Below, one piece after another: positions 3,424 to 63,069 of a stretch of DNA of 64,000 nt (the stretch's first letter is position 1; every line of letters begins with the position of its first letter). The translations under genes were made by a program, and so were the position numbers. The notes under the pieces are model-generated. The model made no database searches. It saw only the letters and a program-made list of their open reading frames with translations, and was not told the DNA's origin. Location of the stretch: IMG/VR virus record IMGVR_UViG_2690316068_000002. One strand, written 5' to 3'. This DNA is from a virus (Duplodnaviria; Heunggongvirae; Uroviricota; Caudoviricetes).

Positions 3424-4050
3424 TTATTTTTTACGGACTGAGTTGTTCACTGCTCTGGCAATCTTCTCCCGCAATTGCTGCGTTCCGTGGTACTGAACCG
3501 CAATATCTCTCAACTCGTTCACCAGTTCTCGAATCTGGTGATCTTTAAGCTCATTATTTGGGTGATTGGTAACAACTCTGGTTAATTCACCCTTGTCTTT
3601 TGCTCTTACGTATGCAGCTCTTGTGCATTCGACCCATGTATTACCGCCTACATTAACTTCGTAGATTAGGCTGGACTTATCTGTCAATTCGGAACAAATA
3701 CGGGCCGTGGTCTGGCAACTAGAGCATTCGCAGTTATCGCGGAAACCGTGATCTACCGGTCGAGAAAGAGGTTTAACTTTTTCATCCAACTTCATCACAG
3801 CATCGTGATAAGCGTTCCAGCCGTCATCTTTACCAAGTTGATAAATCTCTGAAGGCTCCATGTAGTCTATATCGCAACCTTCTTCATCCGATCTATCTGG
3901 TCGCTTCCCTGGTAATCGCTCATAAAAACAATTTCTGTCTCGACGTTCGGCTCTCAGTGCTAACGCAAGAAGTTGCTCAAGCGAGGTATTTGCACCAGCA
4001 ATAATTTCATTGAGAATATCTTCTGTGAGATCTTTCGCTACCGTGCTCAT
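3424..4050 (-). CDS. Hypothetical protein (Cys-rich)
   Basis: 208-aa ORF; first of a tightly packed, overlapping minus-strand gene array. Confidence 0.5.
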   Translation of the reverse strand: MSTVAKDLTEDILNEIIAGANTSLEQLLALALRAERRDRNCFYERLPGKRPDRSDEEGCDIDYMEPSEIYQLGKDDGWNAYHDAVMKLDEKVKPLSRPVDHGFRDNCECSSCQTTARICSELTDKSSLIYEVNVGGNTWVECTRAAYVRAKDKGELTRVVTNHPNNELKDHQIRELVNELRDIAVQYHGTQQLREKIARAVNNSVRKK

Positions 4051-15940: not shown

Positions 15941-15999
15941 AGCCTGCTTCCGTATATTAATAATTAATATGTAGTTATTTATATATACAGAAGCAGGCT
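15941..15999. repeat. Palindromic element, copy 1 (17-bp arms, AT-rich loop)
   Basis: agcctgcttccgtatat ... atatacagaagcaggct; near-identical arms recur at about 63013-63069. Confidence 0.6.
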
Positions 16000-17607: not shown

Positions 17608-17767
17608 GTAAGTCTCCTTCTGCTTGGTTACATTTGCGTTTCGATAGCTACATTTTGACTAAACCTATCAGGCGGAAAAGTATTAAATACAGGCAGGAAA
17701 TGATTGAAAGGCGGCTGTTCTTTAAAAGAAAGCCTGCTTTAAACTCTCTTTAAAGCAGGCTTTTGTT

Positions 17768-21618: not shown

Positions 21619-22488
21619 TTATTTTTTGATCATTCCGTACATTGCTGAGGCTTTAGCTTGCTCAACAAAGGAGGATAAATCGACATCACTATAGGTTGGA
21701 GACTTCAGAATCTTTCCATCGGAAATTCGAAAACCGATCATCTTATCGGTGCCATCAGCATGGCGGAATCCCAGATCTGAAGAGTCGTATTTGCAGTTGG
21801 CCACAGCCTGGCGACGTTCCTCAACATCAGCAGGCCATAATTTTGTCATGTTAGACCGATGAATTTCGCCAACCAGCTCGACGACATTGATACCGAGGAA
21901 ATCAGCCAGTCGATAAGTCATCATGCACGCCACATAGATTTTGTTCATTACACGGCGCAGTTCCTGAATCAGCTCAGAATCCTTAACAGTCTTCTTCTCA
22001 AGTTTATCTGCCAGCTCTTCGAGCATACATGACGCCTCACGAGCTTCCTGAAATGGCATTGCCATATCATCGAAAACAGTGTTACCGGGCACAAAAATTG
22101 TCTGCATAAAGCGATCAATGCTCTGTTCCTGCGTGTAATAGGTCATGCCGGTAGAAATACCACCTTTGATGGAGACCATCGTACCAACACCAACGTATAA
22201 AAAGTCGGCCATTGCATCCAGCAGTTGCTCAATATCCCCATTCATTGCGGCTGGAATACCTTCCACTACAGCTTCTTCATGAATCAGGCTTGCACGGAGA
22301 CGAAGCAGCTCTGGTGTCGGCATAACGCGTCTCGGATGCTGGAAGAGTTCATGAAACTGATCGACCATCTTGTAAATACTTTCAGTGGCTACACCATGGC
22401 CTTCATGCAACTCATATGGTTCTGGCTTAAATCCAATGAGTCGATCGGTGGCAAGTTTCAGGTGGTCAGTCAGTTTGGTAAAGTTCAT
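21619..22488 (-). CDS. Hypothetical protein, possible MazG-like NTP pyrophosphohydrolase
   Basis: ORF trimmed to internal ATG 22488 with AAGGA Shine-Dalgarno; alpha-helical with EE-x-E-x-D-like acidic pattern. Confidence 0.35.
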   Translation of the reverse strand: MNFTKLTDHLKLATDRLIGFKPEPYELHEGHGVATESIYKMVDQFHELFQHPRRVMPTPELLRLRASLIHEEAVVEGIPAAMNGDIEQLLDAMADFLYVGVGTMVSIKGGISTGMTYYTQEQSIDRFMQTIFVPGNTVFDDMAMPFQEAREASCMLEELADKLEKKTVKDSELIQELRRVMNKIYVACMMTYRLADFLGINVVELVGEIHRSNMTKLWPADVEERRQAVANCKYDSSDLGFRHADGTDKMIGFRISDGKILKSPTYSDVDLSSFVEQAKASAMYGMIKK

Positions 22489-42448: not shown

Positions 42449-42754
42449 TCTGTTCTCTGTAAAGGTGTCTGGCATCGTCTGGTTCGTTAACGTTTACTAA
42501 ACCAATGGTGACAAAAATTAGTTATCTTTGAAAAATAAAGGTTGCATGAAAAGAAGGGGTATGCGTTAATAGCATCGTTGGTTTGCAAGACAGACCTTAT
42601 GTAAGCAGTTTTAGTAAAGCAGTCTCAGTTCAGTGTTATCTTCTGATTTCCCTTCTTCGTGAGTCTCCTCCTTAAGTGCCTAAGTAAGTCCCAATCTATA
42701 CAGATCAAATTCTCGCCGCACTATGTGGCTCACAAAATTAAGAAGGTAATATCT

Positions 42755-42970
42755 ATGTCTAATAAAATGACTGGTTTAGTAAAATGGTTTAACTCTGATA
42801 AAGGCTTTGGCTTTATTTCTCCTGCTGATGGCAGTAAAGATGTTTTTGTACATTTTTCGGCAATTCAGAGTAATAATTTCCGCACTTTGGAAGAAGGCCA
42901 GCAGGTCGAATTCTCTATCGAGAATGGGGCTAAAGGCCCAGCAGCAGCAAATGTCGTTGCTCTAAGTTGA
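42755..42970 (+). CDS. Cold-shock protein, CspA family
   Basis: 71 aa from ATG 42755; [13 protein letters not shown]...[13 protein letters not shown]-track start 42659 lies in the long leader. Confidence 0.9.
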
Positions 42971-43245
42971 TTCAACGCTGATGATCCTCATTTCTACAAT
43001 AACGAAGACGGTGTAAGCCTGAGTGGATAGATTTGTAGGATTGTACAAGTTGAATAAATTAGCATGGTAAGGCCATGCTAATTAAATCGACACAACGGCC
43101 AGTTTATTCCATAAAAGTGAATTGCCCATTGTGGCGAAATGCGGGGTTGCCGCATGAATAGTCAAAGGCAGAAGCTAACTGCCGGCATGGCAAAACAAAG
43201 TGCGTAAGAGGAGTGACTTCCTCAACAAGCGCCATAATTCTTTAT

Positions 43246-46200: not shown

Positions 46201-46792
46201 CTACTTTCATCGCTCGGACGTTAATCTGGTCGTAGAATGGGGTAGGGTGCGGATAAACCACGCTATAGAAGTTGTCTTTCCCGCCCGCTGTAATCAGTGA
46301 GCTTATGATTTTTGCAAAATCGTTGCGTTGGAACACGCTACCGATGTCGGAAGTGAGCAGGATGATGTTGCCTTTGGCATATGTAGAAACCAACTGTTCG
46401 AGCGAGAGACGCGGTACAAAGTAGAACTGTTCTCGTGTGTTGGCCACCGTCATTAGTTCGCAGATGTCGCGATATCCTTGCTCATTTTTAATTAGAGCGG
46501 TAAACGAGTAGTTACGTCCCCGCTCTAATGATTCCATACATCTCATAGATTCTTTAGCAAGTTTAGCCCGGTGCTCGTATGTGGGATCATCAACGATATT
46601 TAGTTTCACACCACAAATAACCGCCATGTCGTCACCAGCGGCACGTTGTAGTGGAATAACGCTCGCAATATTCATGCTATCTGCTGAAATTACAGCGGTG
46701 TAGCCAGCTTCTCTGGCAATCTTCACCGCGTTTTCTGCTTTTAGAGCCGACTCCCCAAGTGAGAAGTCAGTTCGAACCATCAGTGCCTTCAT
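43274..46792 (-). CDS. DNA polymerase III alpha-type (DnaE family) replicative polymerase
   Basis: 1172 aa; N-terminal PHP domain; GPGRGSSAGSLVAWCIGITNVDP motif; conserved ribosome-binding context. Confidence 0.9.
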   Translation of the reverse strand: MKALMVRTDFSLGESALKAENAVKIAREAGYTAVISADSMNIASVIPLQRAAGDDMAVICGVKLNIVDDPTYEHRAKLAKESMRCMESLERGRNYSFTALIKNEQGYRDICELMTVANTREQFYFVPRLSLEQLVSTYAKGNIILLTSDIGSVFQRNDFAKIISSLITAGGKDNFYSVVYPHPTPFYDQINVRAMKVASALKIEPVAFYPAYYESIDDADIKDIAHMVTNNIKIDQPHRLRIPHQRDNAINGRRHLLEALKAFSVRMDVPVTAAMASTTQDSIIDACTWRWHELPPALPKMADDEPATLMKLAVAGLRKRLTTKEFGYTPPASENRVYVERLKYEMNTLTRLGFCGYFLMVRDLMNHSRETGIPVGPGRGSSAGSLVAWCIGITNVDPIRHGLLFERFINPERLDLPDADLDFSQARRHEVIEYLNERYGEDYVAGIPNFTYLGAASALRDTARIYGVESADMAVSKELKNVEDDSLPLEELREQLASLDKYATKYPDAFNAACKLQSLMRGFGRHAAGMIVAGVPLTERTPVERRGDARCIAFDKRYCEAMGLIKLDVLGLATLDLLDSAKRYIKENTGEDINLDAISLEDRKVLDGFAAGYTQGVFQLESGPMRKLLKDLGGGIEPMSFKTVVATTALFRPGPIQSGMLDDYVSVAKGFMTPESLHPVLDELTAETNGVILYQEQTMNATRLLAGFTMAEADGVRSAIGKKNMEKMKSMGEKFIVQAQAGWIDVELEDGTTQRIHRAEHFKCEDGTLKTVEEALEHGAKLPINAVRVTASHPGLSEMKAKEIWTAFEKNGAYQFNKSHSVAYSLISYQSMWLKTHYPAEFFAAALTILGEDKHQGLVKDALTYGIRVLPPDVNVSSNRIEIRTLEDGSQVLYAPFSAVKGCSENGCQAIMRAREKVGGKFESLAQFEEAVEKRACNSRVRESLQKVGAFASIEPGSLPATDPERLRDQAELMGNLVIDAVKASRPFEMNPKRSAEINVLMTRMAAEMGLGDELIRPNIGIKPKIMIILDNANGNDARTGYFMENGYDDFKAKLLTAGDLRMGDLYVTGVCKKVKDKEKDYTKDEIGQFTDFMREEINLVRPTYILTCGSRSTALFNNKSKPSDLIGRKEYFPELDATVFYGFNPNILYFRPEEGERLEAILADIAETINK

Positions 46793-50974: not shown

Positions 50975-51361
50975 ATGTCTGATAACAAGATTGAATTTAT
51001 AGAAAGTCGCTACGCTGCTTTTATCGCAGGGTTGATTGAATCCTCACCTATGAGCCAGGCCCAGATAGCCAAAACAATTGGGTATAAAAACGCCAACAAC
51101 CTTTCTTTAATTAAAAGCGGCAAAATTCCTTTGCCTATCGATAAGGTTCGTCCGCTGGCGCTGGCACTGGGCATTGAGCCAAGTCGTCTTATGATGATGG
51201 TGCTGGAAGAACGCCAACCCGAACTCGCAGCATTTTTATACAAAGAAGGCACTGCTCCTCTTAACGAGGACGAAAAACAGGTTCTTGCTGCATATAACGA
51301 GCGATTCGGTAAAGAGAAAGGCGCATCACAAAAGGTTGTTGAGGCCATAAAGTCTCTATGA
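50975..51361 (+). CDS. HTH (XRE/Cro-CI family) transcriptional regulator
   Basis: 128 aa; SQAQIAKTIGYKNANNLSLIKSGK HTH; convergent with integrase. Confidence 0.6.
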   Translation: MSDNKIEFIESRYAAFIAGLIESSPMSQAQIAKTIGYKNANNLSLIKSGKIPLPIDKVRPLALALGIEPSRLMMMVLEERQPELAAFLYKEGTAPLNEDEKQVLAAYNERFGKEKGASQKVVEAIKSL

Positions 51362-52459
51362 AAAATTTACACGAATAAGCTCTGTTGATAGACGATCTCC
51401 CTTAAATTTGTGGTCAATTTCGTCTAAATCCGGTTGCTCTACGATTGATGCGATGTACGTCGAGAAACTTTCTAAGGCGTCTCGCATCTCGTCCATATAA
51501 TCGTGCCGGTCGTAGACCCGATCTATCCCCTCAAGACTGTGGTTCATGATTTTACGTGATACCTCCTGGCTTATGCCTAATGCTGGGAAGTAACTACGCG
51601 CAGTACGGCGCAAATCTCGGGGTGTAAATGGCTCAAGCTCCATCAGTTCTGGTCGTTCCAGAATACGACGTAATGCCTGGGCTATTGCCACTTTAGACAT
51701 AGGAAGGTCTTTCCCGATTTTTTTATTCGAAGGCACGAGCCACTGGCTGTCTTTACCATATTCGAACAACTCTTCAATACAAGTGCGCATTAATGAGCTT
51801 AAAGGCAGAGAATGCTCACGGGCAGATTTGTTCCTCTTGCCTTGATTCCAAACCCCACGCTTAAGATTGAACTCACTTTTTTTAGCCCGCAGTACTTCGT
51901 CAGGTCGTCTTGCGGATACAAGACATAGCCTGGCCGCCCATTTTGTACCAGCACACACATTGAAGTAGTCCCATATATTCCAGAACACCCATACCTCTGC
52001 GTCGGTCAGCTTCCGCTCGCGAGGTGTGGGCTTTGCGCCACCGGCAACTTTGTTAAGTGACATATCGTTTAACGGTGACACGTCTATCATCCCCTGGAAG
52101 GCGCACCAGCTAAGGAACTGCTTCATCAGAGAGAAAACGCGGCGGCCCATAACAATTTTGCCATCCAGTATTAGTGGGTTGACCAGTTGGTTCACCATGA
52201 ACCTATTAATGTCACTTACTTTTACATCGGCAATGTGCGGCAAAACATGTATCAAAATACAATGAACAGCGATCTCTGGCCGACGTCTGGTTATCAGCAG
52301 AGATAAGCGAGTGAATAACATGAATGCGTCCGAGAATCTCATGTCATTGCTGACCTGGGAGATCATAACGGCCTGCATTTGAGATGCTCTTTCGAGATAC
52401 TCTATCGCCTCTTTTGAGGTGTTCTCCGCAGCGCGTGCTCTGTCAAAGCTATTTTTCAT
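51356..52459 (-). CDS. Tyrosine recombinase / phage integrase family
   Basis: 367 aa; C-terminal RDLRRTARSY...NHS...VYDRHDY catalytic motifs. Confidence 0.8.
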   Translation of the reverse strand: MKNSFDRARAAENTSKEAIEYLERASQMQAVMISQVSNDMRFSDAFMLFTRLSLLITRRRPEIAVHCILIHVLPHIADVKVSDINRFMVNQLVNPLILDGKIVMGRRVFSLMKQFLSWCAFQGMIDVSPLNDMSLNKVAGGAKPTPRERKLTDAEVWVFWNIWDYFNVCAGTKWAARLCLVSARRPDEVLRAKKSEFNLKRGVWNQGKRNKSAREHSLPLSSLMRTCIEELFEYGKDSQWLVPSNKKIGKDLPMSKVAIAQALRRILERPELMELEPFTPRDLRRTARSYFPALGISQEVSRKIMNHSLEGIDRVYDRHDYMDEMRDALESFSTYIASIVEQPDLDEIDHKFKGDRLSTELIRVNFS

Positions 52460-52557: not shown

Positions 52558-52590
52558 AATGATTCCATACATAGTAGGTATGGAATCATT
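52558..52590. promoter_or_regulatory. Palindrome upstream of integrase: inverted GTATGGAATCATT
   Basis: aatgattccatac-N7-gtatggaatcatt; single copies of the 13-mer recur near 55402 and 56414. Confidence 0.5.
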
Positions 52591-53191: not shown

Positions 53192-54481
53192 ATGGTATGG
53201 TCGATTAGGTATCATTCAGTTTCAAAATTAACCAAAGACACTGATAAAATGCCTGTTTTGTTAATCCTCATACTTGGGACAGTGATGATTATTTTCTGGG
53301 ATACCGTCAAGGAAAACGTAGAGGTCATAGGTACACTTGCCACTTCACTTGCATTTTTCGCCACAGCATGGGCCGCTTACGAGGCAAGGCATAGTGCAAA
53401 GGCAGCAATGAGGGCCACTAGGCTGACGGCAGCTTCACTCCTTGAAATGAAAAAAGCCTCTTTTAAGGAATGGTACGGCATATTACTTGAACAGCATAAT
53501 AGATTACTTGAGGATGTTAACAAGACCTTGCAGGATGATAGGGAACTTAATGCAAAACTGGGAACGAATCTCATCAAGGCTATTTATTACCATGTAACCA
53601 AAAACTCCGTTTACATTAAATATATTAACCACATAGTTTTAATTCTTGATTATTTAGATAAAGACTTCTATTCGCCGTCATCAGCCGATTATGAAAAGAG
53701 AGCTTACATAGAACAGCTGCGCAACAGCATTAGTCCTAATGTAAGCCTGCTGATAGCTACATTCGGCCTTAATATTGACACTAATAAAACCTATGACGCA
53801 AAGAGGCTTTACAGCCTGCTAAGCAAGTATAACTTCTTCGAAGGCCAACTTTTTTTTGAAGAAGCAATATCGAAAGTTCATTATTTGGACTCTTATGCTG
53901 CTGTGATATTTGATAACGAATACCGAAAAGATGTAGAGTTTTATGTTGAAGAAATGGTTCGAGGTCGTGAGACCCCTAAAATCGATTCAAGATATCGTCA
54001 TTTAAGGGCTACGTTCGCAATTCTGTGGTCTTACAACAACCCCTGCCGACAACATTTGCTTCAAAGATTTAATGACCTACCTATGCATATGCGAAACAGC
54101 ATTGAGCTGAGGATGGAAAATGCAGCCGATAAAGTAGCTGAGTTCAACTCTTTGTTACTTGGTTTTATAGGCTGGGAGCTTAGAATCGCAGGTAATAAAG
54201 TGAGGGTGATCAAGGATGAAAAACATTTAAAGAGGCTAATAAAACTCAACGATAAGTATCCAATTCCCCCCCGAGAGAAAGGTATTCTGTTAACCAATGG
54301 TTTCACCAATAGATTCGCTGATGAGATTAAAAATAGTCTGTCTATGTATAAGTTAGAAAATGCCTATTTAGCACTCAACTCTAATCAACACAAAGAAAAG
54401 GTGATTGATGAAATTGTTGTTGAAGTTGAGAAAATTGTCGATAAATTTAAAGCAGAACTTGATTCTTTGGATTTCAACTAA
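53192..54481 (+). CDS. Hypothetical membrane-anchored protein (AT-rich, plus strand)
   Basis: 429 aa; N-terminal hydrophobic helix; lower GC than neighbours; own terminator. Confidence 0.5.
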   Translation: MVWSIRYHSVSKLTKDTDKMPVLLILILGTVMIIFWDTVKENVEVIGTLATSLAFFATAWAAYEARHSAKAAMRATRLTAASLLEMKKASFKEWYGILLEQHNRLLEDVNKTLQDDRELNAKLGTNLIKAIYYHVTKNSVYIKYINHIVLILDYLDKDFYSPSSADYEKRAYIEQLRNSISPNVSLLIATFGLNIDTNKTYDAKRLYSLLSKYNFFEGQLFFEEAISKVHYLDSYAAVIFDNEYRKDVEFYVEEMVRGRETPKIDSRYRHLRATFAILWSYNNPCRQHLLQRFNDLPMHMRNSIELRMENAADKVAEFNSLLLGFIGWELRIAGNKVRVIKDEKHLKRLIKLNDKYPIPPREKGILLTNGFTNRFADEIKNSLSMYKLENAYLALNSNQHKEKVIDEIVVEVEKIVDKFKAELDSLDFN

Positions 54482-54485
54482 GCAA

Positions 54486-54510
54486 AAAGGGGCCGAAGCC
54501 CCTTTAATTA
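54486..54510 (+). terminator. Rho-independent terminator
   Basis: aaaggggc-cgaa-gcccctt followed by T-rich tract. Confidence 0.6.
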
Positions 54511-54580
54511 TTTGCGCTGAAAAAAGTGTTGCTAGGATGTTAGCAAGCTATGGTTAAGAACGTCTGCCGCAATTGTCTAT

Positions 54581-54658
54581 CACAGCGTTGAGCGGTCTGG
54601 TTTATGTTAGCGGAGTCTTAATCTGGGTGATTAAAAGGCCAAACCGCTCAACGCTGTG
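54581..54658. repeat. Long inverted repeat (20-bp arms, 1 mismatch) abutting the 3' end of tRNA-Ser
   Basis: cacagcgttgagcggtctgg ... ccaaaccgctcaacgctgtg. Confidence 0.6.
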
Positions 54659-54660
54659 TC

Positions 54661-54747
54661 TGGCGGAGAGTAATGGAATCGAACCATCATCGCTTGCGCA
54701 ATGGGACGGTTTTCAAGACCGCTTGAGCACCATGCTCCCTACTCTCC
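54661..54747 (-). tRNA. tRNA-Ser (anticodon UGA), type II
   Basis: Hand-folded: GGAGAGT/ACTCTCC acceptor, G discriminator, encoded CCA, anticodon loop CUUGAAA, long variable arm, TTCGATT T-loop. Confidence 0.75.
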
Positions 54748-54960
54748 AGTTGTTGTGGTGCCGGGGGCTTCCCGGTGTCCTTTGGCTGGTTATCCACCGT
54801 GGACGGAGCCAATAGTCATCACAAAGGATCAATATAACCATTTCCCCGCGTGCGCTTAGCCGCATTCACCACAACGAAAAGAGCACTGTATGACGTTTGC
54901 ACGGACTTACGCTTAAAACAGGGCAGTCTCGGCGGTTCTCAATGCTCTTTCCTGTTGTGT

Positions 54961-55036
54961 TGGTGCCGGTTAACGGATTCGAACCGCCGACCATTCGCTT
55001 ACAAGGCGACTGCTCTACCAACTGAGCTAAACCGGC
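54961..55036 (-). tRNA. tRNA-Thr (anticodon UGU)
   Basis: GCCGGTT/AACCGGC acceptor, encoded CCA, anticodon loop CUUGUAA, TTCGAAT T-loop. Confidence 0.75.
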
Positions 55037-55040
55037 AATT

Positions 55041-55127
55041 TGGTGGGGAGTGATGGAGTCGAACCACCCGAGTCGCAATGACAGTAGATTTACAGTCTAC
55101 ACCGCTACCTCTACGGACTAACTCCCC
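55041..55127 (-). tRNA. tRNA-Tyr (anticodon GUA), type II
   Basis: GGGGAGT/ACTCCCC acceptor, encoded CCA, anticodon stem-loop GACUGUAAAUC, long variable arm. Confidence 0.75.
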
Positions 55128-55132
55128 TAAAT

Positions 55133-55207
55133 TGGCGATGGTGGGTGGATTCGAACCACCGACCAGTTGGTTAACAGCCAACTGCTCTACCGCTGAGCTA
55201 CACCATC
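55133..55207 (-). tRNA. tRNA-Asn (anticodon GUU)
   Basis: GATGGTG/CACCATC acceptor, encoded CCA, anticodon loop CUGUUAA, TTCGAAT T-loop. Confidence 0.75.
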
Positions 55208-55473
55208 AATTCGGCACTGCCAGTATTTATTACTCAACAGTGCCAATCGCGACGGTTTAGTTTCTGCCAGGAAACGCACCGCTACTTGCACTTTTCGTTA
55301 GTGCCAGACGCTTTCGACTTCGCTCAATAGTAGAAGGCAAAATCTTTAAGTAGATGATGTTTCTGAGGACAGCACCTACTTTGTAATTTATACAATGTGA
55401 TGTATGGAATCATTTGTTGTGAAAACAGGCACCAATGGCAACAGTGGTTAAACCTACACAACAATCCTGTCTT

Positions 55474-55595
55474 CACAACGTTGAGGCCACTACTCCGATT
55501 GAATGTTTGCCCAACATGTTACATATCAACGCTCGCCGGTATCTCTGTGAATAGAACCTTAGAATTGATAAAAATGTAATGGCCTCAACGTTGTG
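55474..55595. repeat. Long inverted repeat (15-bp perfect arms, about 92-bp loop) upstream of the tRNA cluster
   Basis: cacaacgttgaggcc ... ggcctcaacgttgtg; arm related to the 54581 repeat. Confidence 0.55.
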
Positions 55596-55985
55596 TGCTG
55601 GCTAACCATACCAGCCGGGCTACGTCGCCGCTTTTTAACCCAGTATAAACGACATAATTGAACAAAATGACGTAACAGGATGGGCGGTCAGTGGCTAAGA
55701 ATCCGGGAGTCATATGGAGTTGAAAATATACCAACCGCCCATTCTGTTACTTCATCGGAGGGAACATGAATGTTCCCTCCTGCGTTCTGCAATCACACTC
55801 GCTCAGTGTGTCCCATTTCGGTAACGAGGCTGGAAACTGACCTCGCTGGTGTTTGGCTTATTAGGCTACTGCCAGATAGACTTCTTCGTTTGCACTTGTA
55901 TTTAAGTTCAAACAGTCGCGTCTCAACGAAAACAAAGTCATCTTATACATAAAAGATAAGTAAGTAAATACTTATTATTGTATTT

Positions 55986-56276: not shown

Positions 56277-56421
56277 TTTCTAACCTTTGTTTCATGAACT
56301 ACCCGATACACACGCTTTCCGATGCACAGTGTTTTGGTTTTAAGTTCCTGCTTAATTAAATCACGACAGATGCCGAAGCCGATAAGGAAGCCACTCATAA
56401 AAGCTAATGAGATGTATGGAA

Positions 56422-56637
56422 TCATTTTAACACTCCTGATTCTACTAATTGCTGTAGCAATACTTTCCCTTTATCAGTTAACTGGTAGTTGGCCGAACAC
56501 TTCGTTTCAGAAACGTTTGCAACCAACCCTAACCGCTCTAACTTAGCCCGCGTTTTAGGCTTCCAGTACTCAGGGAACTCTGACCACTTACTGATTTCAT
56601 GAAGCGTTTCCTTCTCCCGCTTACTTAATACGATCAT
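56422..56637 (-). CDS. Hypothetical protein
   Basis: 71-aa ORF overlapping the stop of the upstream small ORF. Confidence 0.4.
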   Translation of the reverse strand: MIVLSKREKETLHEISKWSEFPEYWKPKTRAKLERLGLVANVSETKCSANYQLTDKGKVLLQQLVESGVLK

Positions 56638-56800
56638 CCTTAATCTCCTTCACTGTGTGGGTTATTTCTACAATGCGATAAATACGACCGCGTCGTTCTA
56701 TAACACCGCTTTTAATGTAGTCATTGATGCAACTGGACATCACCACAATACCGATTAAAAAACCAACCGCTAAAAATGCAATCATCCAGCCGAGCATCAT
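56621..56800 (-). CDS. Small membrane peptide (59 aa)
   Basis: Hand-translated; ATGA overlap with ligase stop; single TM. Below ORF-track cutoff. Confidence 0.3.
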   Translation of the reverse strand: MMLGWMIAFLAVGFLIGIVVMSSCINDYIKSGVIERRGRIYRIVEITHTVKEIKDDRIK

Positions 56801-58119
56801 TCTTTATCTCCGATTCGATCTTCTGTATCGCGTAAGCAACGCGGCCATTTCAGTCGTGGGTGGCGTAAGCTGCCGTCCGGTGTTTTCTCGTGACAATGAA
56901 CCTCGACAATACGACCACGGTACTTCTCTTTGTTGTTCCAGATCTCGTCCAGATATTTATGCTTAATGCCGCTCGCACGAACGATGACGCCGTTTTCAAG
57001 ACGAATAACAATTTTTCCAAGTGTGTTGGCAAAACCAGAGTCCGGGTCGCCCGGCTCAAAGTCGATAATTTCACCATCTTCTGAATCTTCGTCTTTTAAC
57101 TTCCACCAGCTGCGGGTACGTTTAAACTCGTAAACAGAGTTCGGATCTTTGCCCATCTCCCCTTCTTCGTTATCGTCCAGGCGTTTCATGAAGCGTTCGA
57201 TGAAGTCTTCGTGGCTATGGATGATGTAGAACGGATGTAGGTGAATGTCTTGCGCGTAGTCTTCACTGCGATCGTTTTTGAACAACGCCACGAGAATAGC
57301 CAGGCGCTCTTTCAGCTTCATACCTGTCTTTGCATACTCTTTGGATTTAGCCTGTGCCCGCCATTCCGGTAGGAAGAAGTCGAAAACATGATAAATAGCG
57401 CCAATTGCCTGCACGTTCTTTTTGCGCAATGCAGATACGGACTGGTTAAATGAACCGGCTGTTCCTTCACCATCGAAGAAGATGTGTTTGTGGCCTGAAA
57501 GTTTGCCTAATTCGAGCATGGCTGGCTTTAGGTGATCGAGAGACGTGATTGGATTACCAGTACGAGAAAGGAAGTTCACCTCTTCCTCGTCAACAATAAC
57601 CTCACAAATTACTCGCAAACCATCGAGCTTAAGGCTGCCAATCATCGGCCATTTGGCTTTAGGATTTGGCTTGAAGGGGTATTTGTCGCCTTTTTCTTTA
57701 TACGGTGACGCCAGCTGCACCTCAAATTTCGGAATGGGATTTTCAAAAACCTTGTTGCATAGGCTAATCCCAACGCCAGCTTTCGGATCTTTTAAGAGGA
57801 AACGACGGAACACGTCCTGCCCATCGGCGCACATTGACGCCACGATAGACTCAACAGCAGCTATTGCTGCGTTCCCCGTCAGCTCGCGAGAGGCCAGCTT
57901 ATTCAGTATATCAATGGCTTTTTCGTCACTTGGGACGGACTCACTAAGCGGCTCTGCCACTTTGTATTTCTTTACCCCAAAACGGATGAAAGGGTTGAGC
58001 ATCAATGAAACCATGCTTTGCTCGAAGTCATCCATGTTGGCCAATGCCTCTTTTTTTGCATTGGTTCCCATAGCTTTCATTTCGTCCAGCTTATGCTTAA
58101 GTGCGATCAACTTTTTCAT
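56797..58119 (-). CDS. ATP-dependent DNA ligase
   Basis: 440 aa; adenylation motif I KLDGLR. Confidence 0.8.
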   Translation of the reverse strand: MKKLIALKHKLDEMKAMGTNAKKEALANMDDFEQSMVSLMLNPFIRFGVKKYKVAEPLSESVPSDEKAIDILNKLASRELTGNAAIAAVESIVASMCADGQDVFRRFLLKDPKAGVGISLCNKVFENPIPKFEVQLASPYKEKGDKYPFKPNPKAKWPMIGSLKLDGLRVICEVIVDEEEVNFLSRTGNPITSLDHLKPAMLELGKLSGHKHIFFDGEGTAGSFNQSVSALRKKNVQAIGAIYHVFDFFLPEWRAQAKSKEYAKTGMKLKERLAILVALFKNDRSEDYAQDIHLHPFYIIHSHEDFIERFMKRLDDNEEGEMGKDPNSVYEFKRTRSWWKLKDEDSEDGEIIDFEPGDPDSGFANTLGKIVIRLENGVIVRASGIKHKYLDEIWNNKEKYRGRIVEVHCHEKTPDGSLRHPRLKWPRCLRDTEDRIGDKE

Positions 58120-63012: not shown

Positions 63013-63069
63013 GACCTGCTTCTGTATATATATAAATACTAATTTACTTATTATATACAGAAGCAGGTC
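63013..63069. repeat. Palindromic element, copy 2 (18-bp perfect arms)
   Basis: gacctgcttctgtatata ... tatatacagaagcaggtc; related to copy at about 15941-15999. Confidence 0.6.

Follow-up and report, generated by a model that had tools for sequence, protein, structure and literature searches.

A modular tRNA array in an SSU5-like phage-plasmid, with hairpins that probably punctuate an RNA precursor and do not bound a mobile cassette

Here we analyse a cluster of four tRNA genes (tRNA-Asn, -Tyr, -Thr and -Ser) and the two long inverted repeats that bracket it in the viral record IMGVR_UViG_2690316068_000002, of which a stretch of 64,000 nucleotides (nt), hereafter the window, was analysed. A preliminary description of the window had suggested that the repeats might be the ends of a mobile tRNA cassette, or else processing or termination structures. 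Comparison of related loci rules out the reading of the two repeats as cassette ends, and the pattern of sequence change in them makes it probable that they belong to a family of hairpins serving as punctuation at the RNA level. We propose that positions 55,970-54,486 of the minus strand form a single non-coding RNA operon of about 1.5 kb, which would also encode a distant relative of the small RNA (sRNA) STnc100 and, at its head, a conserved segment resembling the tag-encoding part of transfer-messenger RNA (tmRNA).

The region spanning positions 54300-55900 is 100% identical to plasmid CP057251.1 (pRHB31-C19_2, 110,652 bp, from E. coli in cattle faeces), is matched in pieces at 97-98% identity by Escherichia phages CMS-2020a and Cyrano, and has remoter kin in Klebsiella phage-plasmids and Salmonella phage SSU5. 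Because the window matches CP057251.1, CMS-2020a, Cyrano and SSU5, we classify the element, on sequence similarity, as an SSU5-like phage-plasmid; the remainder of the plasmid carries tail, capsid, terminase and ParB-type genes. The array sits at the end of a block of replication genes, and 80 related loci were fetched by means of the neighbouring DNA ligase gene (56797-58119 in the window) and their tRNA arrays typed. Twelve of the 80 show no tRNA, mostly ending short of the array, and about 75 loci reach it; the comparisons of array content given below refer to the latter.

The downstream repeat had been described as a hairpin with 20-bp arms at the 3′ end of tRNA-Ser, and so it was found: its 20-nt arms (54581-54600/54639-54658, 38 nt apart) are complementary at 19 of 20 positions and lie 2 nt from the tRNA-Ser CCA. 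The upstream repeat stands 266 nt from tRNA-Asn, in agreement with the earlier figure of about 270 bp, and its arms (55474-55493/55576-55595, 82 nt apart, again 19/20 complementary) are 20 nt long and not 15 bp as first given. In each of these 20-bp stems the single mismatch is a G.U pair. The arms of the two repeats are related, as had been noticed, since the 12-mer CACARCGTTGAG occurs four times in the 64 kb, exactly in the four arms, against a chance expectation of 0.70 and with none of 100 shuffled sequences reaching four copies. Folded on the minus strand the repeats give −41.2 kcal/mol (z −9.7) and −47.8 kcal/mol (z −5.9), and they are the longest hairpins in the whole 110-kb plasmid. 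The 82-nt loop of the upstream repeat is kept in sequence and orientation among relatives, and the loop of the terminal (downstream) hairpin carries a conserved AAGACUCCGC, for which no significant second site was found as a partner. Kissing between the two loops was rejected, their complementarity amounting to 6 nt that are not conserved in relatives.

The window contains at least five hairpins of one family, the two repeats among them, and this family is confined to the array region within the 110-kb plasmid. The family rule, on the tRNA-sense (minus) strand, is that a hairpin starts with CA(C/U)A(A/G)C and finishes with G(U/C)UGUG. The preliminary description had missed the hairpin in the gap between tRNA-Thr and tRNA-Ser (54958-54870) and two leader hairpins (55755-55667 and 55780-55757), along with the tmRNA-like segment. 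In relatives, a family hairpin begins 0-2 nt after the CCA of tRNA-Asn or tRNA-Thr, and its 3′ GUUGUG usually leads straight into a core closed by a final CACAAC, yielding units of the form CACAAC-hairpin-GUUGUG-core-CACAAC; the mini-core of the window shares its GUUGUG with the preceding hairpin in this manner. The GUAACAG leader hairpin is present in nearly all related loci that cover its site, and the short leader hairpin is swapped in relatives for covarying stems of the AGGGCAUG/CAUGCCCU type. Downstream of the GUAACAG hairpin, the conserved spacer has pseudoknot potential (GUUACGUC/GACGUAAC and GGGUUA/UAACCC) and a predicted hairpin, GCUGG..CCAGC, that abuts the next CACAAC. Rfam searches of the hairpins and leader (ribozymes, DicF and others), followed up to E-values of 5-10, returned only the weak tmRNA and STnc100 matches.

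The distribution of variable content among relatives bears directly on the cassette proposal. The leader is invariant, consisting of a GUAACAG-type hairpin, about 76 nt, the CACAACGUUGAG hairpin, some 210-270 nt and tRNA-Asn. After tRNA-Asn the content varies, comprising nothing, the terminal hairpin alone, tRNA-Ser, Thr-Ser, or Tyr-Thr-gap-Ser, and this variation is confined to the stretch between the first tRNA and the terminal hairpin. The terminal hairpin follows the last tRNA, whichever that is (Asn, an anticodon variant of Asn, or Ser), and SSU5 has the leader hairpin and tRNA-Asn only, with no terminal hairpin. Gaps between tRNA-Thr and tRNA-Ser range from 8 to 668 nt and accommodate up to about four hairpin/core units, or none, the cores being of several alleles; extra family hairpins lie inside the arrays of relatives, and in total more than 40 architectures were counted, with module boundaries at tRNA ends or hairpin arms. 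No empty site between the two repeats was found among loci whose DNA covers the site. If the repeats delimited a mobile cassette, as had been suggested, its presence or absence between them would be expected to vary among relatives; no such cassette-like pattern was seen, and both repeats persist whatever lies between them. The leader is fixed, the terminal hairpin tracks the last tRNA and there are internal copies; therefore, the repeats are not cassette ends.

Individual loci show further rearrangements. One (L033) contains a chimeric tRNA, with the 5′ part of tRNA-Asn and the 3′ part of tRNA-Thr, left by a deletion between the two genes; the apparent tRNA-His of another (L083) is an SSU5-type tRNA-Asn with its anticodon changed from GTT to GTG; and a third (L053) has the leader-hairpin loop in reverse orientation with respect to the arms. 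Between tRNA-Asn and tRNA-Ser, locus L051 has a tRNA-Thr-like gene with intact acceptor, D-arm and T-arm in which some 75 nt of inserted sequence replace or interrupt the anticodon-arm region; it receives no ARAGORN call and could be a disrupted gene or contain an unusual intervening sequence.

Changes within the hairpin stems point to the level at which they are maintained. Compensatory double changes were observed in 2 of the 20 pairs of the terminal hairpin and in 4/19 pairs of the leader hairpin. One-sided changes yield a G.U pair on the tRNA-sense strand, and hence A.C on the other, in eight of nine cases, and in the leader hairpin in 5/5; a broader tally of G.U versus A.C gives about 30:16 for SSU5-like loci and 33:16 for the P1-like ones. 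The hairpin loops are asymmetric and conserved in sequence and orientation. The closing helix of the adjoining core, in which the GUUGUG is used a second time, shows strong compensatory change as well (see below). From the compensatory changes, the G.U bias and the conserved asymmetric loops we conclude that selection appears to act mainly on RNA made from the tRNA-sense strand. The covariation and strand bias thus favour the RNA-processing part of the earlier suggestion of processing or termination structures, and the termination part is not supported, as no U-tract follows the stems.

In the operon that we propose, a promoter-like site would be followed by the tag module, by tandem units of hairpin and mini-core that include the upstream repeat, by tRNA-Asn, tRNA-Tyr and tRNA-Thr, by a hairpin with the STnc100-like core, and finally by tRNA-Ser, the terminal hairpin and terminators. 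A single transcript would start at about 55,933 and end at the terminators (54,546-54,486). The promoter-like hexamers are invariant in nine diverged lineages, as TTTACT-17-TA(A/T)GAT with a spacer that varies, and place the predicted transcription start near 55933. At the other end, a weak hairpin with U6 (54546-54520) precedes a strong bidirectional terminator, GGGGCUUCGGCCCC with a U-run (54505-54486), which is the one terminator-like site that the terminator scan placed in the region. The two repeats would act as RNA, their 20-bp stems with a CACAAC...GUUGUG base punctuating the polycistronic precursor from positions either 0-2 nt past a tRNA CCA or immediately ahead of an sRNA core. Such stems would most likely serve as cleavage sites for a double-strand-specific, RNase III-type nuclease, as barriers to exonucleases, or as both. 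Together with cuts by RNase P and RNase E at the tRNAs, they would release and define the tRNAs along with the leader RNA and the STnc100-like RNA. The stem length of an RNase III site is reached (20 bp with one G.U, a near-perfect duplex if transcribed); the naming of RNase III as the nuclease is tentative. On the DNA level, the shared hairpin and tRNA sequences would provide the homology for recombination that has shuffled tRNA/sRNA modules within SSU5-like elements and between these and P1-like phage-plasmids.

The ATGATTCCATACAT motif looks like a repressor operator by analogy with the P1 C1 sites. Copies of the 14-mer lie at 46528-46541(+), 52559-52572(+), 52576-52589(−), 55400-55413(−) and 56412-56425(−), with a weaker one at 21629-21642(+); two of them stand head to head between the integrase and glutaredoxin genes, another lies upstream of tRNA-Asn at a distance of about 190 nt, and no copy was found in the other 46 kb of the plasmid. 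Conventional small open reading frames (ORFs), including MIPYI-type starts at ATGATTCCATACAT, were considered and rejected, as they are not conserved and the SSU5 frame has only 6 codons.

Several points weigh against reading the hairpins as RNA punctuation. The sequence shows the elements themselves, with their conservation, covariation, strand bias, modular variation and sharing between phage families; a single transcription unit, the nucleases acting on it and what each RNA does are proposed on that basis, and this counts against the reading as far as the single unit and any nuclease are concerned. A promoter consensus scan made no call in the region, the proposed site agreeing at 8/12 positions. 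Near-perfect palindromes of 20 bp fit DNA-level roles equally well, and the flipped loop of L053 shows that DNA recombination takes place at the arms. The G.U bias, at about 2:1, derives from related, non-independent sequences. Finally, the conservation of the basal CACAAC/GUUGUG across paralogues is unexplained by RNase III, which has little sequence specificity, and GUUGUG can pair with either the hairpin or the downstream core, making the fold ambiguous.

The same observations must be weighed for other explanations. The hairpins could be DNA recombination sites, that is, recombinase targets or hot spots of template switching or homologous exchange that move tRNA/sRNA modules, and in this looser sense only would the repeats be ends of mobile cassettes. 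We regard this as unlikely. It would account for the extreme modularity of the arrays with boundaries at tRNA ends or hairpin arms, for the direct CACAAC repeats flanking each unit and for the one inverted loop, and a tyrosine recombinase gene (51356-52459) lies 2 kb from the array. This gene, however, is unlinked to the array in SSU5 and the Klebsiella relatives, the two bracketing hairpins never mark a presence/absence polymorphism, and the observed deletions, such as the one behind the L033 chimera, are explained by ordinary tRNA homology. Strand-asymmetric retention of G.U pairs and conserved asymmetric loops would also be unexpected for pure DNA sites. A specific version, in which the repeats are integron attC sites, was rejected: as read from the sequence, the attC core consensus fits one hairpin only, and the recombinase is not syntenic in relatives.

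It is quite improbable that the repeats are protein-binding DNA palindromes, whether operators, centromere-like sites or signals for replication or single-strand initiation. Their near-perfect symmetry and their position next to the primase and ligase genes, at the end of the replication-gene block, would suit such a role, as would the location of the homologous P1 region in a repressor-controlled operon. Yet the distal arms differ wholly among paralogues, covarying instead of being conserved, the 38-82 nt that separate the arms hold asymmetric inserts that are conserved, these hairpins occur joined to sRNA cores on four phage backbones that are unrelated to one another, and ATGATTCCATACAT looks more operator-like. 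Very improbable, finally, is a role as transcription terminators or attenuators bounding the tRNA unit: strong stems do lie 5′ and 3′ of the array, and in P1 a true terminator precedes the homologous leader, but neither stem is followed by a U-tract on either strand, terminator-like sites proper occur 35-170 nt further downstream, and internal copies stand between genes that must be co-transcribed.

The four tRNA genes themselves had been reported as minus-strand genes unlike those of E. coli and hence element-encoded, a view that the comparisons uphold. ARAGORN calls all four, and exactly these four in the 64 kb, all on the minus strand, with Rfam in agreement; no gene was rejected by the predictor or proved identical to a host gene. 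Scores with the Rfam tRNA model RF00005 are 75.5 bits for Asn, 69.5 for Thr and 41.6 for Tyr; the long-arm tRNA-Ser scores best with the tRNA-Sec model (44.6 bits), its anticodon UGA reading Ser. CCA is encoded in all four genes. Identity to E. coli K-12 genes is 64.2% for Ser (serT), 76.6% for Thr (thrU), 67.8% for Tyr (tyrU) and 64.9% for Asn (asnT); at 64-77% identity to the K-12 isoacceptors, the tRNAs are element-encoded and not host copies. Identity to the tRNAs of P1 and P1-like phages, by comparison, is 88-99%. In the element's genes UCA makes up 19% of Ser codons and ACA 27% of Thr codons, about twice what we take to be the K-12 level, as would suit Ser and Thr tRNAs with a supply role; probably the tRNAs serve codons that are used more by the element than by its host, and a role against tRNA-targeting nucleases is possible. 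An annotated gene of Cyrano, CYRAN_40, overlaps tRNA-Ser.

The gap at 54748-54960, which had been suspected of holding another RNA, does hold one. Its 213 nt between tRNA-Thr and tRNA-Ser form one unit, a family hairpin followed by a core that aligns with the Rfam STnc100 model (RF02076) over the model's whole length, at 41.3 bits against a gathering threshold of 47 (E 6.9e-7 in a 3-kb search), and that is 85% identical to P1 70068-70201. The core has a closing helix, GUUGUGGUG/CACCACAAC, and a terminal hairpin, CCGGGAAGCCCCCGG. Across 12 core variants, bona fide STnc100 included, 97.2% of the cells in the closing helix are paired and 7 of 9 pairs show compensatory change; none of 500 shuffles matches this, and no slid register comes close. 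By this covariation the gap element is a real structured RNA; with its sub-threshold score it is a distant relative of STnc100 and not a member of the family. It has no terminator of its own, tRNA-Ser beginning 4 nt on. With RF02076 the corresponding units of P1 and ST64B score 33.4 and 35.1 bits, that of a P1-like phage 38, and a lambdoid copy 132; the last is a bona fide STnc100, located 77 nt downstream of a lambdoid tRNA cluster.

At the head of the proposed operon lies the tmRNA-like tag module. Its parts are a conserved GUUUUCGUUGAGACGCGACUGUUUGAAC..UUAAA, a resume-type GCA (55893-55891) opening a 10-codon frame ANEEVYLAVA (55893-55864), the stops UAA UAA (55863-55858), and a hairpin CGAGG-loop-CCUCG (55845-55825) followed by UUACCGAA. 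The sequence of 55893-55858, with AAGU preceding, reads AAGU GCA AAC GAA GAA GUC UAU CUG GCA GUA GCC UAA UAA; the module has no start codon and no tRNA-like domain. Lineages with up to 15% difference between their ligases have nearly the same sequence over the first 180 nt or so of the leader. SSU5-like elements have the tag variants ANEDTYLAVA, ANEDAYLAVA, ANEDSYLAVA and ANDNQYLAVA. The only variation seen in the YLAVA codons is synonymous, at third positions (UAU/UAC, CUG/CUA, GCA/GCC, GCC/GCU/GCA), and non-synonymous variation is restricted to residues 3-5, apart from one loss of a stop codon. The hairpin after the stops covaries (CGAGG/CCUCG versus UGAGG/CCUCA). At the homologous place P1 has the tag ANDDLMMVAA, with variants ANDDLMMAAA and ANDNLMMVAA and again with synonymous changes, and a fourth type of phage has ANDDYIRVAA about 150 nt before a tRNA-Ile. 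Judged by this pattern of substitution, the tag frame appears to be under peptide-level selection. Small indels (1-2 nt) immediately before the tag disrupt every longer frame, and SSU5 has a UGA in frame; a conventional ORF over the tag was rejected accordingly.

The likeness to tmRNA is partial. The 19-nt resume context of P1 is that of genuine permuted tmRNA genes, as called by ARAGORN at default settings, and the window's tag stands in register with nt 85-125 of E. coli ssrA (ANDENYALAA, double stop) at 31/41 nt, a score not above that of shuffled sequences. Rfam tmRNA models match weakly over the tag part only, at 11-20 bits against thresholds of 47-84, and ARAGORN recovers the resume consensus and tags of P1 and SSU5 at a relaxed threshold only (-ps80), with implausible tRNA-like domains. 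An H-type pseudoknot can be drawn after the tag in P1 and in locus L269, and not clearly in the window. ARAGORN found no tRNA-like domain at default and -ps settings, a regular-expression search of the whole 110-kb plasmid for T-arm, acceptor and CCA yielded nothing beyond the four tRNAs, and no tmRNA reached the Rfam gathering threshold, the other 46 kb of the plasmid included. Three further readings were rejected: a downstream tRNA as tRNA-like domain in cis, given that a lambdoid prophage copy has no tRNA within 7 kb; the STnc100-like core as an alanine-accepting tRNA-like domain, with no conserved G3.U70 and no conserved CCA (GCCA follows the closing helix in the lambdoid copy only); and pairing of the leader with host ssrA, which is no better than in shuffled controls. 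The module cannot be a conventional tmRNA; it is a conserved orphan tag segment, apparently undescribed, since we found no literature description of the SSU5/P1 tRNA-linked hairpins or of a tmRNA-like element in P1.

A possible, if rather doubtful, extension is that the operon head is a portable "mRNA half" of a tmRNA, lacking the tRNA-like domain, in which a resume codon and a degron-like tag would be decoded without a start codon and the hairpin/STnc100-like units would be its partners. The tags in question would be AN(E/D)xxYLAVA in SSU5-like elements and a lambdoid prophage, ANDDLMMVAA in P1 and ANDDYIRVAA in the fourth phage type. The closing helix and terminal hairpin of the STnc100-like core resemble an acceptor/T-arm minihelix, and on this reading the cores would be partners of the tag and not independent sRNAs. 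Were it true, temperate enterobacterial phages would exploit, reprogram or decoy host trans-translation, or else use a structure-driven start at an Ala codon. Decoding of the frame, if it occurs, would connect temperate phages with ribosome rescue or protein tagging in a way that is open to test; otherwise the segment is still a strongly conserved and unexplained RNA. Of 5,426 complete E. coli genomes, 258 (about 5%) carry the leader module, almost always on plasmids, in some of which a PGAP-annotated "C-type natriuretic protein" coding sequence (CDS) overlies the tag module. Separately, three IMG/VR viral contigs (L317, L235 and L226) contain genuine permuted two-piece tmRNA genes by ARAGORN, with tags ANDSNYALAA and ANDDVYNLALAA, each ending in a double stop.

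Table 1. Features of the proposed operon in the window
Feature	Position	Strand	Basis
Promoter-like site, TTTACT (55968-55963), 17 nt, TAAGAT (55945-55940)	55940-55968	−	Inferred
tmRNA-like tag module	55800-55935	−	Weak Rfam tmRNA matches, ARAGORN relaxed, variant pattern
Short leader hairpin, 11-bp perfect arms	55757-55780	−	Inverted-repeat listing, conservation
Leader hairpin, GUAACAG...CUGUUAC base	55667-55755	−	Arms 55755-55734/55688-55667, 22 nt, 91% complementary
Conserved spacer	55596-55666	−	Conservation; structure inferred from sequence
Upstream inverted repeat (CACAAC-family leader hairpin)	55474-55595	−	Arms, shared motif, fold, covariation
Mini-core, closing GUUGUGAAGACAGG with CCUGUUUUCACAAC	55416-55479	−	Inverted-repeat pair, conservation
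ATGATTCCATACAT motif, operator-like	55400-55413	−	5-6 copies in window against 0.59 expected
tRNA-Asn(GUU)	55133-55207	−	ARAGORN, Rfam, K-12 comparison
tRNA-Tyr(GUA)	55041-55127	−	ARAGORN, Rfam, K-12 comparison
tRNA-Thr(UGU)	54961-55036	−	ARAGORN, Rfam, K-12 comparison
Third CACAAC-family hairpin (CACAACAGGAAAGAGCAUUG...CAGUGCUCUUUUCGUUGUG)	54870-54958	−	Starts 2 nt past tRNA-Thr CCA
STnc100/PasD-like sRNA core	54752-54875	−	Rfam RF02076, P1 identity, covariation
tRNA-Ser(UGA)	54661-54747	−	ARAGORN, Rfam, K-12 comparison
Downstream inverted repeat (terminal family hairpin)	54581-54658	−	Arms, shared motif, fold, covariation
Likely unit end	54486-54546	−	Terminator scan; weak site read from sequence

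Beyond the array, a 429-aa ORF (53192-54481, plus strand) converges on it and has no Pfam or PADLOC match. Only the closest plasmids carry this ORF, so that the array seems to be followed by a variable site for accessory genes. A methionine--tRNA ligase gene (metG) is annotated on the plasmid (window 1-937, minus strand, continuing into plasmid 76571-78604), and the element therefore has a second translation-related function beside the tRNAs. The plasmid also carries the leader of a cold-shock gene, as indicated by a strong Rfam match to the cspA thermoregulator (187 bits, window 42577-42994, plus strand). Scattered around the plasmid are hairpins of a second family, unrelated to the first, whose arms read (A/G)(G/A)CCTGCTTC(C/T)GTATATA (window 15941-15999 and 63013-63069, also 17729-17763; 30221-30275 in L211); they may represent terminators or centromere/partition sites.

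The building blocks of the array are shared across unrelated phages. Family hairpins recur in the 80 related elements and also in a lambdoid prophage, ST64B, the ban operon of P1 and P1-like phages. With the P1-like phage Ro157c2YLVW the window shares the Thr-Tyr-Asn block at 94.8% identity, the flanks being unrelated, and the tRNA-Thr of CMS-2020a is 98.7% identical to that of P1 and 89.7% to that of the window; the two tRNA-Thr alleles thus cut across phage families. The P1 region runs in the order tag module, hairpin, tRNA-Asn, tRNA-Thr, hairpin with mini-core, and two hairpin-plus-core units, and is annotated inside the C1-controlled ban operon (AF234172, 68.6-71.3 kb) as Pban, "dicF-like region", tRNA-Asn, tRNA-Thr, tciABC, tRNA-Ile and ban. 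P1 and the window thus have in common the tag module, the family hairpins, the hairpin-plus-core units and tRNA-Asn/Thr genes that are 88-90% identical, on unrelated backbones (myovirus-type P1 versus an SSU5-like element); in P1 the units are placed after the tRNAs and are followed by protein genes. The P1 annotation names neither hairpins, cores nor tag. At 69472-70041 of AF234172 (L006), plp (a putative lipoprotein gene) and upl instead lie opposite tRNA-Thr, two family hairpins, the mini-core and the first larger core, which suggests that two long-standing P1 genes overlie RNA elements on the other strand; plp and upl may be annotation artefacts. In ST64B, hairpin-plus-core units occur in the immunity region. 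The lambdoid prophage (L335, E. coli PM4-5 chromosome, 3440-3810) has, in the interval from the Q antiterminator to the holin gene, the tag ANEEMYLAVA and after it a family hairpin with core; no tRNA is nearby, and G-CCA comes after the closing helix of the core.

Among known systems, integron attC sites and the palindromes of repetitive extragenic palindromic (REP) elements or miniature inverted-repeat transposable elements (MITEs) resemble the hairpins: in both, modules the size of a gene are bordered by imperfect palindromes of 60-140 bp, and a tyrosine recombinase is close by. The hairpins differ in that the attC-type GTTRRRY/RYYYAAC core is found in one hairpin, with no extrahelical bases and no IntI-type integrase, in that no presence/absence behaviour is seen, and in the strand bias, which points to RNA. 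STnc100 is a prophage sRNA related to PasD (bioRxiv 10.64898/2026.05.13.724894; PMC12370729). The gap core shares with it the 5′ (U)GGUGAAU, the closing helix (U)GGUG/CACCA, the terminal CCGGG..CCCGG hairpin and the association with a phage tRNA cluster, just downstream of which the bona fide gene lies. Unlike STnc100, the gap core scores below threshold, has no terminator of its own, sits between two tRNAs and is preceded by a long hairpin, which the lambdoid STnc100 gene lacks. The comparison carries the STnc100/PasD family far outside the Stx-type prophages and places it in physical association with phage tRNA arrays. With tmRNA (ssrA) the tag module shares a resume-type GCA with a conserved A at −4, a 10-codon tag that starts AN(D/E) and has a small hydrophobic end, and a stop or double stop followed by a hairpin; it differs in having no tRNA-like domain anywhere in the plasmid and Rfam scores far below threshold. 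An exhaustive survey reported ssrA only in mycobacteriophages and Bacillus phage G, with a partial phage tmRNA, consisting of the tRNA-like domain alone, in DS6A (PMC4131195).

A functional parallel to the proposed operon is the tRNA cluster of phage T4, whose polycistronic transcript, processed by RNase P, E and III, also yields the stable non-tRNA "species 1 and 2" RNAs (rnaC and rnaD). T4 differs in being virulent and in showing no sequence relationship to the array, and to our knowledge has neither the repeated hairpin module nor the tag module. The basic form of the array, a phage-encoded tRNA cluster, is ordinary; its context, a modular tRNA/sRNA/hairpin operon common to several temperate phage lineages and with a tmRNA-like tag segment lacking the tRNA-like domain at its head, is not. 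Phage tRNA clusters are usually seen as codon-supply or anti-defence cargo, whereas here they would be part of a larger, conserved and highly recombinogenic RNA operon, with building blocks common to SSU5-like phage-plasmids, the P1 ban operon, ST64B-type phages and a lambdoid late-gene leader.

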